Shown: piece by piece, positions 51,877-58,623 of the stretch
Layout: the number at the start of each line of letters is the position of its first letter
Numbering within the stretch: position 1 is the stretch's first letter
Virus record (IMG/VR): IMGVR_UViG_3300032268_001605
Coordinates: 75,251 to 139,250 of that record
Origin: a virus
Strand: one strand, 5' to 3'
DNA: 64,000 bases
The notes under the pieces: model-generated
Told to the model about the DNA's origin: nothing
Database searches by the model: none
What the model saw: the letters and a program-made list of their open reading frames with translations, nothing else
Position numbers and translations under genes: made by a program

Positions 51877-52794
51877 TTATTTCATGAAATCGGAAATATA
51901 TTTTTTTAGTGCTATATCCTTCATTTTACACTCCATTTCGATATCCAATGAATTGTCATAGTCATTAAATTTCTCGTAGAGAAAATCGGAGTGTGCTTCA
52001 GATTTAGCAGATATATCCTCAAATTCTTTTCTTGAACTTGAATGATGACACAGTGGTTTTGTTTTCCAGGTTGAAATTGCTAAATTAAGTGCATCTTTTT
52101 CAGAGTAACCACCTGAATTTAATTTATGGTGAAAGCTATCGAAAACAATAGGGATGTTTATTTTCGTGTGAACCCAATCATACAACATCTTCACAGAATA
52201 TTGATTTGGACTATCATCATTTTCAACAGTCAATCGTTTTTTACAAGAATCAGATAATAACTCAAAGTTCTGACAGAATTTTTGACAAGCTTCTTCTCTA
52301 CCGGGTTTGGTTGTACCAATGTGTATGTTTACAGGATAGAAAGTAGACTGCTCTAAACCCATCAAGTCTAAAATTTGAGAGTGCTTATCTAATTCATCAA
52401 TAGCATTCAAAACTACCCTTTCGTTCTCACTAGCTAATATACAAAAATGAGATGGGTGAAATGAAAGCCTAAATCCATTATCCATGGCAAATTTGCCAGA
52501 TTTTCTGAGTTTAGACTCTATTAGTTTTATGTTAGGTAAGTCTTCTATTTTATAAAAACCAAGACAAGGAAACATATCACTTGACATCCTGTAGACTGAA
52601 ATATCATTCTTCAGGTTCCATTCGAGAATTTTTTGAAGATCGTCAAGATTCTTCAGTGTTAGTTCAGAGACATAATCTAAACCTTTAGATTCAAATGTTT
52701 TTTTCGTCATACCTCGATTTACGGAGATATAGTCTTTCTTTTTTAGACCCTCATTCATCGAGAGGTTGATACAGCAGTAACCAATGTTGTTCAT
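51877..52794 (-). CDS. uvsE: UV damage endonuclease UvsE/UvdE
   Basis: IGYCCIN, YRMSSDMFP, RLSFHP, RLTVENDD, FDSFHH, AHSD, EMECKMKD. Confidence 0.93.
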   Translation of the reverse strand: MNNIGYCCINLSMNEGLKKKDYISVNRGMTKKTFESKGLDYVSELTLKNLDDLQKILEWNLKNDISVYRMSSDMFPCLGFYKIEDLPNIKLIESKLRKSGKFAMDNGFRLSFHPSHFCILASENERVVLNAIDELDKHSQILDLMGLEQSTFYPVNIHIGTTKPGREEACQKFCQNFELLSDSCKKRLTVENDDSPNQYSVKMLYDWVHTKINIPIVFDSFHHKLNSGGYSEKDALNLAISTWKTKPLCHHSSSRKEFEDISAKSEAHSDFLYEKFNDYDNSLDIEMECKMKDIALKKYISDFMK

Positions 52795-55392: not shown

Positions 55393-57285
55393 ATGAGTAA
55401 AAAAGAGTATGTATTGGGTATTGATTTGGGGACTACAAATTCGGCCCTTTGTGTTGTTCAAAATGGTGAACCAGTGGTTATCACAAACAGTGAAGGTAGA
55501 AGAACAACACCATCTGTAGTTGGATTCACTGGAACTGACAGAAAAATTGGGGATTCAGCAAAAAGACAAGCTGTTACAAATCCAACCAAAACAGTTTATT
55601 CAATCAAGCGTTTCATCGGCAAAGATTTCTCTAATTGCAAAGATGAAATTACCAGAGTACCTTACAAAGTAGAGAAAATTGGGAACAATGTTCCAGGTGT
55701 ACTTATCGATGATAAACACTACACACCACAAGAAATTTCAGCTATGATTCTTCAGAAACTGAAACAAACAGCTGAGGACTTTTTAGGGCAACCCGTGACT
55801 AAAGCAGTTATTACAGTTCCGGCTTACTTTGGGGATGCAGAGAGACAGTCCACTATAGAGGCAGGAAAAATAGCAGGACTTCAAGTAGAAAGAATTATCA
55901 ATGAACCAACAGCTGCCGCCTTAGCTTATGGACTTGATAAGAAAAACCAAGAACAAAAAATCATAGTTTATGACCTCGGTGGTGGAACATTTGATATTTC
56001 AGTTCTTGAAATTGGAGATGGTGTATTTGAAGTTAAATCAACTGATGGTGATACACACTTAGGTGGAGATGACTTTGATAACGCTATTATCAGTTGGATG
56101 GTGGAAGAATTCAAAACCGAAAACGCAATGGATTTGAGTAAAGACCCTATGGCACTTCAAAGATTGAAAGATGCAGCTGAAAAGGCAAAAATCGAACTAT
56201 CTTCTTCATCACAAGCAGATATCAATCTACCTTACTTAACAGCTAAAGATGGAGTACCACTTCACTTTGTTAAAAGTTTGTCAAGAGCTAAATTTGAACA
56301 GATGATTACACCTCTAATCGAAAGAACTATTAATTGTTGCAAATCAGCTCTTAAAAACGCTAAGATTAAAGCATCTGATATTGATGAAGTAATCTTGGTT
56401 GGTGGTTCAACAAGAGTACCAGCGGTTCAAGAAGCGGTTGAAAAGTTTTTCGATAAGAAAGCAAATAAATCAGTTAATCCTGATGAAGTAGTTGCAATTG
56501 GAGCGGCGATTCAAGGGGCGGTTCTTTCCGGTGAAATTACAGATGTACTTCTTTTAGATGTAACTCCACTTTCACTTGGAATTGAAACTATGGGTAATGT
56601 TATGACAAGATTAATTGAAGCTAACACTACAATCCCTACAAGAAAAACTGAAACTTTCTCAACCGCTTCGGATAACCAACCCTCAGTGGAAATTCACGTA
56701 CTTCAAGGTGAAAGACCGATGGCTAAAGATAATCGTTCACTTGGTAGATTTCACTTAGATGGTATTATGCCGGCTCCAAGAGGGGTACCCCAGATAGAGG
56801 TGACATTAGATATAGATGCAAATGGCATTCTTTCGGTGTCAGCTAAAGACAAGGCTACTGGAAAAGAGAACAAAATCAGAATTGAAGGTGGTTCTCAATT
56901 ATCTAAGGAGGAAATTGAAAGAATGAAGCAGGAGGCTGCTGAAAATGCTGAATCCGACAAGCTTGAAAGAGAGAGAATTGATAAGTTGAATCAGGCTGAT
57001 AGTTTAATTTTCCAAACCGAAAAACAGGTTAAGGAATTTAGTGAAAAATTAACTGAGGAAAATAAAGCAGATTTAAATGCTTGTTTGGAAACTTTAAAAT
57101 CGGCTCACTCGGCTCAGAATTTGGAAGAGATTGATTCGGCTATGAATAAGTTGAATGAAACTTGGCAGAGAATTTCGACAGATCTTTACAATCGTTCTTC
57201 TCAGGAAGAAGCTTCACAAGCAACTGGAAATGAAGGTGGTGACACTGGTGAACCACAAGATATACAGTTTGAAGAAGTAAAATAG
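55393..57285 (+). CDS. dnaK: Hsp70 chaperone DnaK
   Basis: [42 protein letters not shown]-terminal FEEVK. Confidence 0.98.
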
Positions 57286-57498: not shown

Positions 57499-57933
57499 AT
57501 GAGAATTAAAAATTTTCAACAATATAATTTGCTTTTAGAGAAAAGTTTGACACAACTTATTTCAAAAATTGAAGTGGTATTTAACTTAGAATTGGTTAAG
57601 ACAAAACATTCAGATGATAGGGAAACTAGAACCAATGTTAAAAATAAATCTGAATGGGATGAGGGTTACAATAAAAAAGTAATAACAAATGAGGAACTAA
57701 TTGAATTTGGTAATTACTTCAAAAGGGAGATAGCCGAGCATATAGGGACAACCGAAATTGAAAATGGCGTAGAATTTGTTATAAAATCAGATAGTAGAGA
57801 ATTAGCTTGTGTAATTATTCCCCAGCAACAATCAACTGCATACTGGAAATTAATATTAAAAACTGTTTGGAGAGAGAGTCCATCACATAGATTAAAAGTT
57901 GGGAGAGACCAATTGGTTATAATAAAACCTTAA
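57499..57933 (+). CDS. hypothetical protein with N-terminal tag, possible BECR-like RNase fold
   Basis: TKHSDDRE...ITNEEL...LILKTVW pattern; fold assignment weak. Confidence 0.55.
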   Translation: MRIKNFQQYNLLLEKSLTQLISKIEVVFNLELVKTKHSDDRETRTNVKNKSEWDEGYNKKVITNEELIEFGNYFKREIAEHIGTTEIENGVEFVIKSDSRELACVIIPQQQSTAYWKLILKTVWRESPSHRLKVGRDQLVIIKP

Positions 57934-57935
57934 AT

Positions 57936-58097
57936 GAAAAAAAGAGGGTTGTATCTGAATCGTTGCCTCCCTCTTAGTTCTCAAAGATGATTGTATCTGA
58001 ATCGTTGCCTTCATCAATGAATTAAAAAAAAACAGGGTTGTATCTAAATCGTTGCCTCCCTATTGATGATTGTATCTAAATCGTTGCCTTCATCAAC
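57936..58097 (-). ncRNA. candidate small RNA(s): four hairpins sharing the 20-nt loop AGGCAACGAUUYAGAUACAA
   Basis: Cores at 57949, 57991, 58038, 58070 flanked by differing complementary stems; promoter directly upstream; U tracts after the 2nd and 4th hairpins. Confidence 0.75.
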
Positions 58098-58101
58098 AAT
58101 A

Positions 58102-58132
58102 CAAAGATAAGGATTATTTTTTAATTTCCAAA
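58102..58132 (-). promoter_or_regulatory. Bacteroidota sigma-A type promoter driving the hairpin array
   Basis: TTTG(58132-58129)-N19-TATCTTTG(58109-58102). Confidence 0.8.
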
Positions 58133-58566
58133 TCTCCTATCAATTTTTTTAAGCCTTCAATTGTTTCACAGACATAATATTCTTTGTAAAACTTATTAGA
58201 TGATACCTTAGATTTATCTCTATAAGAGTAACAAAACAGTATCCAATAATCTTTCAGAAGATGTAAGTCAATAATATAATCTTTCAATTGTGGTTCTTTA
58301 GAATTCGGAAACAATGTCCACCTATTAGTTCCCCAGCCAAAACATAAAATTGGTTTCGGGAAGTGAGTTTTAAGCTTTACGAATACCTCTTCACCAACTT
58401 TTTCTTCAATTATACTTTTGATATTATATTTTTGTAAATCATTCGGATCTACAAACAAGTTTCTATTATTATAATAAATTTCATCGAAATCGACTTCTGT
58501 AATTTTTTTGTAATCTAGCCAATCCCCATCAAATACAGATTCATTAAATTTTCTTAGATATTTCAT
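58114..58566 (-). CDS. hypothetical protein with MKYLRKFNES tag
   Basis: 150-aa ORF, TATATA upstream. Confidence 0.7.
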   Translation of the reverse strand: MKYLRKFNESVFDGDWLDYKKITEVDFDEIYYNNRNLFVDPNDLQKYNIKSIIEEKVGEEVFVKLKTHFPKPILCFGWGTNRWTLFPNSKEPQLKDYIIDLHLLKDYWILFCYSYRDKSKVSSNKFYKEYYVCETIEGLKKLIGDLEIKK

Positions 58567-58623
58567 ATGTCTATATATAAACTTTTTGAAAATATAAAAG
58601 GGGCTAATTAATATATACTTTTG

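Follow-up and report, generated by a model that had tools for sequence, protein, structure and literature searches.

The nut sites of phage lambda (boxA plus boxB) and the put sites of HK022 are phage RNA hairpins that lie directly after a promoter, in more than one copy per genome; in boxB it is the loop, 5 nucleotides (nt) long, that counts, and in put the fold. The sponge RNAs CsrB and RsmZ are multivalent and bind the protein CsrA through GGA loops. The RNA anti-CRISPRs (Racr) are small repeat-bearing phage RNAs with a promoter of their own, for which neutralisation of a host protein by mimicry has been proposed or shown (PMC10651486). GOLLD is a phage RNA that assembles into a 14-mer cage and is often found near tRNA islands and downstream of tRNA-Met (Kretsch et al., 10.1101/2024.12.08.627333). 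Here we describe a locus at positions 57,936 to 58,132 of a 64,000-nt stretch of viral DNA (the window; positions 75,251 to 139,250 of IMG/VR virus record IMGVR_UViG_3300032268_001605), in which four hairpins present the same 20-nt loop on different stems. An initial annotation, made from the letters and a list of open reading frames (ORFs), had read it as a small RNA encoded on the minus strand.

The family to which this locus belongs resembles nut and put, and the leaders of rRNA operons with their hairpin and boxA, in having a promoter-proximal hairpin with a conserved loop and, in one relative (G005), in standing directly before a boxA-like GTTCTTTGA in the leader of GOLLD. It differs from them in that the loop is about 20 nt rather than 5, the window locus has no boxA and no following operon, and no N-like protein was identified. 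As in CsrB and RsmZ, one transcript would show the same short sequence in several hairpin loops, but all four window loops read AGGCAACGAUU..., AGGCAA, without GGA. The format of a small repeat-bearing phage RNA with its own promoter is shared with ToxI, pseudo-ToxI and Racr; there, however, the whole repeat copies a host repeat, whereas here the loop alone is conserved and no host copy was found in the genomes scanned. A ToxIN-like architecture, looked for as tandem whole-unit repeats plus a co-oriented toxin gene, was not seen, the neighbouring gene being convergent; as for membership of ToxN/AbiQ, that neighbour falls in no Pfam family and gives weak fold matches to RelE/ParE-type proteins. 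With GOLLD and other tRNA-cluster RNAs the relatives of the locus share a setting of phage tRNA islands, tRNA-Met and GOLLD itself, although GOLLD (RF02032) is a cage-forming RNA of at least ~800 nt, and the module described here is a hairpin of 35–45 nt.

The hairpin module and its conserved loop

The 20-mer TTGTATCT(G/A)AATCGTTGCCT occurs in four copies in the window, with plus-strand starts at 57949, 57991, 58038 and 58070. On the plus strand, TTGTATCTRAATCGTTGCCT is matched exactly at 57949–57968, 57991–58010, 58038–58057 and 58070–58089, where the initial annotation had placed the loops. This number is well beyond chance (0.01 copies expected; four matches reached in 0 of 100 shuffles), and no other copy was found in the window at up to three mismatches or in the whole 139-kb virus record. 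The stems that had been proposed to close the loops (AAGAGGG/CCCTCTT, GATGA/TCATC, (T)AGGG/CCCT(G) and TTGATGA/TCATCAA) are likewise all present. Whole repeat units are 67–92% alike, with only the loop common to all. Copy 1 resembles copy 3 and copy 2 resembles copy 4 (92% and similar), so the locus reads as two tandem two-hairpin units, an organisation that had been suggested from the window and is repeated at related loci. The repeats lie between the stops of two convergent ORFs, at 57499–57933 (plus strand, 144 amino acids, aa) and 58114–58566 (minus strand, 150 aa), and the only frames in between are short ones that start with TTG (41 and 35 aa).

Alignment of related hairpins showed that the flanks of the loop are kept for their ability to pair. 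Across 43 distinct 42-mers, 65.3% of cells were paired, compared with 48.3% after shuffling (0 of 500 shuffles as high), and covariation was 0.535 against 0.248 for shuffled rows and 0.290 for the best slid control. A larger alignment, comprising the first 150 of 158 distinct 42-mers with stemless chance matches and out-of-register copies deliberately kept, gave 73.6% paired cells (47.4% shuffled; again 0 of 500 shuffles as high) and a covariation of 0.663 (0.242 shuffled; slid controls at most 0.326), which bears out the central claim of the initial annotation, a conserved loop on covarying stems. Among the metagenome matches listed, a stem of at least 5 base pairs (bp) sits right at the loop in 116 of 132 exact loop occurrences and at 104 of 120 loci, and 56 different stem pairs are represented. 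The module can thus be defined as a 5–11-bp stem of free sequence carrying a ~20-nt loop with the near-invariant core AACGAUUNAGAUACA and two free positions, N4 and N12. A covariance model built from the 43 hairpins recovers the four window copies at 35–52 bits. The loop might also be read as a double T-loop (UNAGA + UACAA). On comparative grounds, these data show what appears to be a structured, promoter-driven small RNA module under strong selection on the sequence of its loop and, in its stems, on pairing only.

Because most loci had been found by means of the loop, we also collected 80 loci with the neighbouring 144-aa protein as the sole search key (proteins 37–59% identical to that of the window). 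Enough downstream DNA was available for 78 of these, yielding 49 distinct regions. The exact 13-nt core ACGATTNAGATAC was present in 30 of the 49, and two more loci had a one-letter variant of it. In the 35 distinct model matches from this set, the sole change within the core was G to A, in three rows, while the four 5′ and two 3′ letters of the loop were variable and the stems differed freely. A freely drifting loop, named at the outset as an observation that would speak against the RNA, was therefore not what the protein-anchored regions revealed. Comparison of the window with a close relative (L144) points the same way at short range: the RNA differs by one substitution and two indels, none of them in a stem or loop, and the next 55 nt of coding sequence by seven substitutions.

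Searches for a known relative of the hairpin were negative. Rfam 15 gave no match at the gathering score across the whole window, in agreement with the initial view that this is not a known RNA family, and relaxing the threshold to E up to 10 for positions 57700–58400 produced six weak hits, all far under their cut-offs (best 25.7 bits against 49). Ten related loci had no Rfam match other than tRNA and GOLLD, and the loop hairpin has no sequence match to GOLLD or its Rfam model. The literature searched on phage and Bacteroidetes small RNAs, RNA anti-CRISPRs, GOLLD, and the tRNA and noncoding RNA of huge phages does not describe the hairpin, supplementary motif lists lying outside the scope of the search; the loop as 14-letter words had no match in literature text, and the accessible text of the RbpB paper (PMC11697453) gives no motif. 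The hairpin family appears to be new in so far as no description was found in Rfam or in the literature searched, although its general kind, a small structured phage RNA with a conserved loop, is known.

Promoter, strand and transcript organisation

On the minus strand the loop reads AGGNAACGAUUNAGAUACAA. A −33 element, TTTG (58129–58132), lies 19 nt before a −7 element, TATCTTTG, of the TAnnTTTG type (58102–58109), noted as overlapping the last codons and stop region of the ORF at 58114–58566. The arrangement TTTG-N19-TATCTTTG, reported from the start as a minus-strand promoter, is thus present from 58132 to 58102, and the first stem begins 3–6 nt further on. We take these TTTG and TAnnTTTG boxes to represent the Bacteroidota promoter consensus. 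Host RNA polymerase would read the minus strand from the base of the first stem (about 58096).

In transcription order, hairpin 1 (58060–58099, minus strand, as for all that follow) has the stem UUGUUGAUGA/UCAUCAAUAG, its loop at 58089–58070 and a score of 51.8 bits. Hairpin 2 (58031–58064; loop 58057–58038; 35.3 bits) has the stem AAUAGGG/CCCUGUU with one U-G pair, and its outer pairs compete with those of hairpin 1. A run of nine U (58024–58032) follows. Hairpin 3 (57986–58015; loop 58010–57991; 45 bits) is closed by GAUGA/UCAUC and hairpin 4 (57942–57975; loop 57968–57949; 52 bits) by AAGAGGG/CCCUCUU, after which comes a run of seven U (57937–57943), separated from the convergent ORF's stop codon by 4 nt. 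The U tracts that had been noticed after the second and fourth hairpins are therefore real, at nine and seven T, and transcription would end at the first, the second or both, giving possible 3′ ends for RNAs of ~72 and ~160 nt. A scan for canonical terminators (loops of 3–8 nt) listed none at these hairpins, which have U runs but loops of 20 nt. The stem CAATAGGG/CCCTGTT gains its U-G pair solely in the minus-strand orientation, another detail of the annotation that was confirmed.

Related loci support the same strand. The TAnnTTTG box, its end 12–17 nt ahead of the loop, accompanies 27 of the 33 distinct hairpins that come first in their unit at viral loci, compared with 87 of 5000 random positions in those loci, and among the matches listed a promoter box is present in 82 of 104 metagenome loci. 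An A-C pair on one strand is a G-U pair on the other; in the proposed sense, the 25 in-register stems of the 43 hairpins contain 19 G-U and 2 A-C pairs. tRNA genes within 2 kb of stem-bearing hairpins, again among the matches listed, number 161 on the same strand and none on the opposite one, and just three opposite-strand tRNAs were seen, all at L097, a stemless match. Not every copy starts a transcript: the hairpin of L043 has no promoter and sits between two tRNA genes, and the copy in a Flavobacteriaceae metagenome-assembled genome (MAG) lies within a 3′ untranslated region (UTR), before the terminator. Together, these comparisons support an RNA that would be made from the minus strand, from a host-type promoter.

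Distribution and genomic contexts

Besides the window's own, 6 viral contigs contain the exact 20-mer. Freeing the two variable positions (18 of 20 kept) raises the number of viral contigs with the module pattern to 46, and metagenomes contribute at least 120 stretches, with the module in at least 104 contigs; the metagenome and viral sets overlap (the contigs of L103 and L040, and of L140 and L014, are the same, for example) and are not independent. There are at least 158 distinct hairpin copies, whose sources range from metagenomes of lakes to the genome of a 635-kb phage. A scan of 185,579 species, each represented by a single genome, gave 15 stretches with the freed pattern, none of them in an array; four are true hairpins, all on MAG contigs, and the rest are coding or unstructured chance matches. 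Two of these four MAG loci were inspected (L052 and L059), and integrase and resolvase genes lie alongside them. The covariance model finds 1–4 copies in each of five other large records, and three hairpins in the 635-kb uncultured phage LR745206.1. Against cultured phages, blastn with a 1.3-kb query returned nothing at E 1e-5. A 165-nt query at E up to 10 matched 7 phage records, of which LR745206.1 holds a true hairpin and the others are Tenacibaculum, Vibrio and Salmonella phages matched at 15–19% coverage. Copies per distinct cluster, among the matches listed, are one (79 clusters), two (47), three (4) or four (2). This distribution supports an assignment, on sequence criteria, to an uncatalogued RNA family carried by large phages whose hosts are of the Bacteroidota type. 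A separate group of matches, in the gut-derived genome bins L055, L064 and L065 and in L126, has the exact loop in a shared context, ..AAAATTACAAAA-loop-TGATATTGTACAAGC.., and the usual stem is missing.

The hairpin occurs in several contexts. The window type, found at 21 of the 46 viral loci, consists of a promoter, a hairpin with an A/U-rich stem, and a hairpin with a G/C stem and a U run, convergent with the 144-aa gene and next to Hsp70; the window itself has two such units in tandem. In a three-hairpin form the RNA measures ~110 nt, and its first and last loops display the motif. Elsewhere the module is single, or paired behind a promoter of its own; other copies head tRNA arrays, precede tRNA-Met and a GOLLD RNA, or lie between tRNAs. 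Among the matches listed, a tRNA gene is present within 2 kb at 34 of 129 distinct loci (26 downstream only, 1 upstream only, 7 both). GOLLD (RF02032) lies downstream of the hairpin in L013, L024, G005, G001 and LR745206.1; it was found at 9 of the 104 metagenome loci among the matches listed, with its 3′ domain 548–677 nt downstream and on the same strand in 8 of the 9. Neither GOLLD nor a tRNA was found in the window's 139-kb record.

The GOLLD transcript of G005 opens with the motif hairpin itself, which is directly followed by the boxA-like GTTCTTTGA, an element that we compared with the boxA consensus. A boxA-type leader was considered as a general feature and rejected, as GTTCTTTGA follows the motif hairpin within 300 nt in just 12 of 131 distinct contexts among the matches listed. 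None lies near the window locus, the window's only two copies being at about 49798 and 26277. As a separate observation, GOLLD transcripts open with a hairpin followed by GTTCTTTGA(A) at L013 (5735–5790), L079 (G005, about 108400) and L093 (LR745206.1, about 420340); we take GTTCTTTGA(A) to resemble the boxA of rRNA leaders.

A second promoter usually lies between the hairpin and the tRNAs. The interval in L009, L011, L092, L099, L114, L118 and L131 contains such a promoter and an ORF of 32–39 codons, which is followed by a G+C hairpin with a U run and then by the tRNA array; the same layout recurs in L154, L160, L173, L190, L196, L206 and L214. The ORFs fall into a family M[KT]TMNLNMNMNTLTVVNNTLCIR..., before Asn/Ile/Arg/Leu/Val/Thr/Met tRNA arrays, and a family MRTINKHKHFSKSSKWFSNK..., before Lys/His/Phe/Trp/Arg/Ser arrays, and their amino acids mirror the tRNAs encoded downstream. 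The layout resembles that of a phage tRNA operon attenuated through a leader peptide. Separately, ARAGORN calls a tRNA-shaped gene with a two-letter 'anticodon' 81–84 nt upstream of the hairpin in L007 (12754–12840), L093 (1345–1432) and L104, which may be a non-decoding tRNA look-alike.

The surroundings of the window locus are phage-like, with genes for Hsp70/DnaK (55393–57285; E 3e-254), a UvdE endonuclease (51877–52794), a T4-type RNA ligase 1 (59837–61006) and a T5orf172/GIY-YIG homing-type nuclease (58621–58950). The completeness rating of the virus record, 20%, suggests a very large genome. The convergent 144-aa gene ('fam0'; 57499–57933, plus strand) is the usual neighbour of the RNA in one phage lineage. 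After homologues of this gene, L253, L254, L257, L272, L275, L283 and L284 have an alternative small RNA that has its own promoter and is conserved, begins GGGTTGAACCGAGATTACCC..ACAACTCGGCGGAATGAG and ends in a terminator; nine loci gave no Rfam match for it at E up to 0.01. The homologue in LR745206.1 (L296, 315265–315654) has a convergent neighbour that looks, by eye, like an S1-type RNA-binding domain.

Candidate functions of the hairpin RNA

We tentatively favour a trans-acting small RNA whose loops bind a conserved protein, probably one of the host or phage RNA or translation machinery. The loop would be a sequence-specific binding site for a highly conserved partner, most likely such a protein, and the four loops of one transcript would form a multivalent ligand that titrates or recruits it, gaining in avidity or titration capacity. 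No gene follows the hairpins on the RNA's strand in the window, where the RNA ends against the convergent gene, and U runs follow 18 of 34 distinct last hairpins of related loci. Since nothing co-oriented follows, and since the module also lies inside tRNA operons and a 3′ UTR, its product is most simply a free RNA acting in trans.

Several points weigh against this reading. Most loci were selected by their loop in the first place, and its conservation in them is therefore built in; only the protein-anchored set escapes that effect. The module is missing from 19 of the 49 distinct protein-anchored loci, where its place is taken either by a convergent ORF or by another small RNA with a promoter. 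On the minus strand the 173-nt RNA folds with z = −0.92 (35 of 200 shuffles fold as well), whereas z is −3.92 on the plus strand; taken singly, just 25 of 43 hairpins have their more stable form in the proposed sense. The minus strand is favoured because we weighed comparative evidence above folding energy. No public RNA run was found to contain the locus; its expression, transcript ends and timing, including the putative immediate-early expression of the initial annotation, are inferred, and no partner of the loop was identified. Finally, the tRNAs near hairpins (146 downstream and 13 upstream, among the matches listed), together with the position of the hairpin at the transcription start, fit a cis-acting leader equally.

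Such a leader is unlikely but credible. The hairpin would act at the 5′ end of the nascent transcript, either recruiting a factor to the polymerase, as at lambda nut/boxB and HK022 put, or serving as a factor-dependent terminator, and would control how much transcription continues across the tRNA array or GOLLD RNA (in the window, across the convergent genes in antisense). Several observations are as expected of it: the stem starts a few nt past the promoter box in the same 27 of 33 distinct units; the tRNA bias just given extends to whole loci (26 with downstream tRNAs only, 1 with upstream only); the 3′ domain of GOLLD follows on the same strand at a narrow range of distances; and the hairpin of G005 replaces the leader hairpin directly before GTTCTTTGA. 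A 20-nt loop would also make a poor intrinsic terminator, one that a bound factor could switch. However, nothing co-oriented follows in the window or in the 30 module-bearing regions among the 49 anchored by the protein, GTTCTTTGA is as infrequent as described above and absent from the window locus, a second promoter usually intervenes before the tRNAs, and copies are also found between tRNAs and in a 3′ UTR.

A more speculative extension, which we judge rather improbable, would make the hairpin an address tag of the huge-phage 'RNA island'. The tag would mark the 5′ ends of tRNA-array and GOLLD transcripts, and a single factor dedicated to it would recognise its loop. Candidates for this factor are a ribonuclease-like phage protein (for example the 144-aa neighbour), the cage formed by GOLLD, and a host protein of RNA processing or translation. 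The four-loop RNA of the window would then be a soluble competitor, tuning the processing, read-through or loading of those transcripts.

A base-pairing regulatory RNA, in which the open 20-nt loop would be an antisense seed for a host or phage RNA, is improbable. Antisense RNAs are typically built in this way, with a stable stem that holds a long, conserved and unpaired loop, and N4 and N12 could be tolerable mismatches. Against this, the complement of the loop is not enriched in the phage's own 139-kb record. Shuffled loops also did as well against the Pedobacter rRNA operon (284 and 224 of 300 shuffles scoring as high in the two senses), against 45 phage and host tRNAs (best duplex matched by 73 of 200 shuffles) and against four GOLLD RNAs (equalled by 55–242 of 300). 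A search of 401 Bacteroidota genomes on both strands, allowing up to two mismatches, listed 77 matches in 61 genomes with no recurring site, and a reversed-pattern control gave about 77 matches in about 62 genomes (hand count). Host matches that are scattered, non-recurring and at control level speak against mimicry of a CRISPR repeat or type III antitoxin, and against extended antisense pairing of the loop with any conserved host RNA. The proposals of this kind in the initial annotation are disfavoured, there being no host counterpart or complement above the control in these searches. Antisense seeds of 7–10 nt may still operate, and the loop could copy a CRISPR repeat private to the phage's own host. 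Mimicry of the 16S rRNA '790 loop' (GAUU-AGAUAC, a likeness that we assumed as a lead) was also considered and was rejected, the one-gap match to Pedobacter 16S rRNA scoring below the mean of shuffled loops.

Equally doubtful is a loose analogue of a type III toxin–antitoxin pair, in which the RNA would be a pseudo-substrate, inhibitor or regulator partner of the 144-aa protein. The association is frequent, the gene being the convergent neighbour at 21 of the 46 viral loci found by the loop and the RNA being present at 30 of the 49 distinct loci found by the protein. A model of the protein built from 27 sequences (predicted local distance difference test, pLDDT, 78) has mostly RNases among its structural matches: RelE (Z 6.0–6.1), a colicin E5 domain (Z 5.5), HigB2 (Z 5.4) and T4 RegB (Z 4.2), with YoeB/HigB in the top Foldseek rows (E 0.2–0.5). 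Matches overall range over Z 4.2–6.2 and Foldseek E 0.2–1, all of which is non-specific by the tools' own thresholds (Z under 8; Foldseek E above 0.1), so the predicted fold weakly resembles RelE/ParE/colicin-E5/RegB-type ribonucleases. The protein has no Pfam, PHROG or PDB sequence match, and in Atlas it falls in viral hypothetical clusters only, with a 0.79 lead to DUF4258. Its distribution is also a difficulty for a dedicated pair. At least eight of the 19 protein loci without the module have a different small RNA instead; no homologue was found in the hairpin-bearing records G001, G003 and G004, all incomplete; the homologue in the 635-kb phage is 72 kb from the nearest hairpin; and the gene is convergent, whereas the toxin of ToxIN lies downstream. 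A functional pairing is possible and weakly supported.

Finally, a DNA-level repeat (origin iterons, operators in an array, or the target of the homing-type nuclease encoded nearby) is very improbable, in spite of the four direct 20-bp repeats spaced 42, 47 and 32 bp apart beside A/T runs and a T5orf172/GIY-YIG gene 0.5 kb away, because the flanking inverted repeats covary, which is needless for double-stranded protein sites, and this covariation does not fit a duplex-DNA site when taken with the 19-to-2 excess of G-U over A-C pairs and the strict co-orientation with tRNA genes; single copies are moreover the commonest state (79 of 132 distinct clusters among the matches listed), and copies occur inside tRNA operons and a 3′ UTR.

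Islands of RNA genes, among them tRNA arrays, tRNA look-alikes and the cage-forming GOLLD RNA, are found in large phages. The hairpin is a small, well-defined and abundant member of these islands, whose loop stays near constant amid change. Beyond the initial annotation, the present analysis finds the module to be widespread in large phages, where it often heads tRNA arrays and GOLLD RNA genes. It offers a simple marker of RNA islands, and its loop an easy bait for the factor that reads it. Should a host protein prove to be that partner, the phage would have in this RNA a tool of take-over or counter-defence of a kind not yet described in Bacteroidota; if instead the hairpin is an address tag, it would provide the first functional handle on RNA islands of the GOLLD type.

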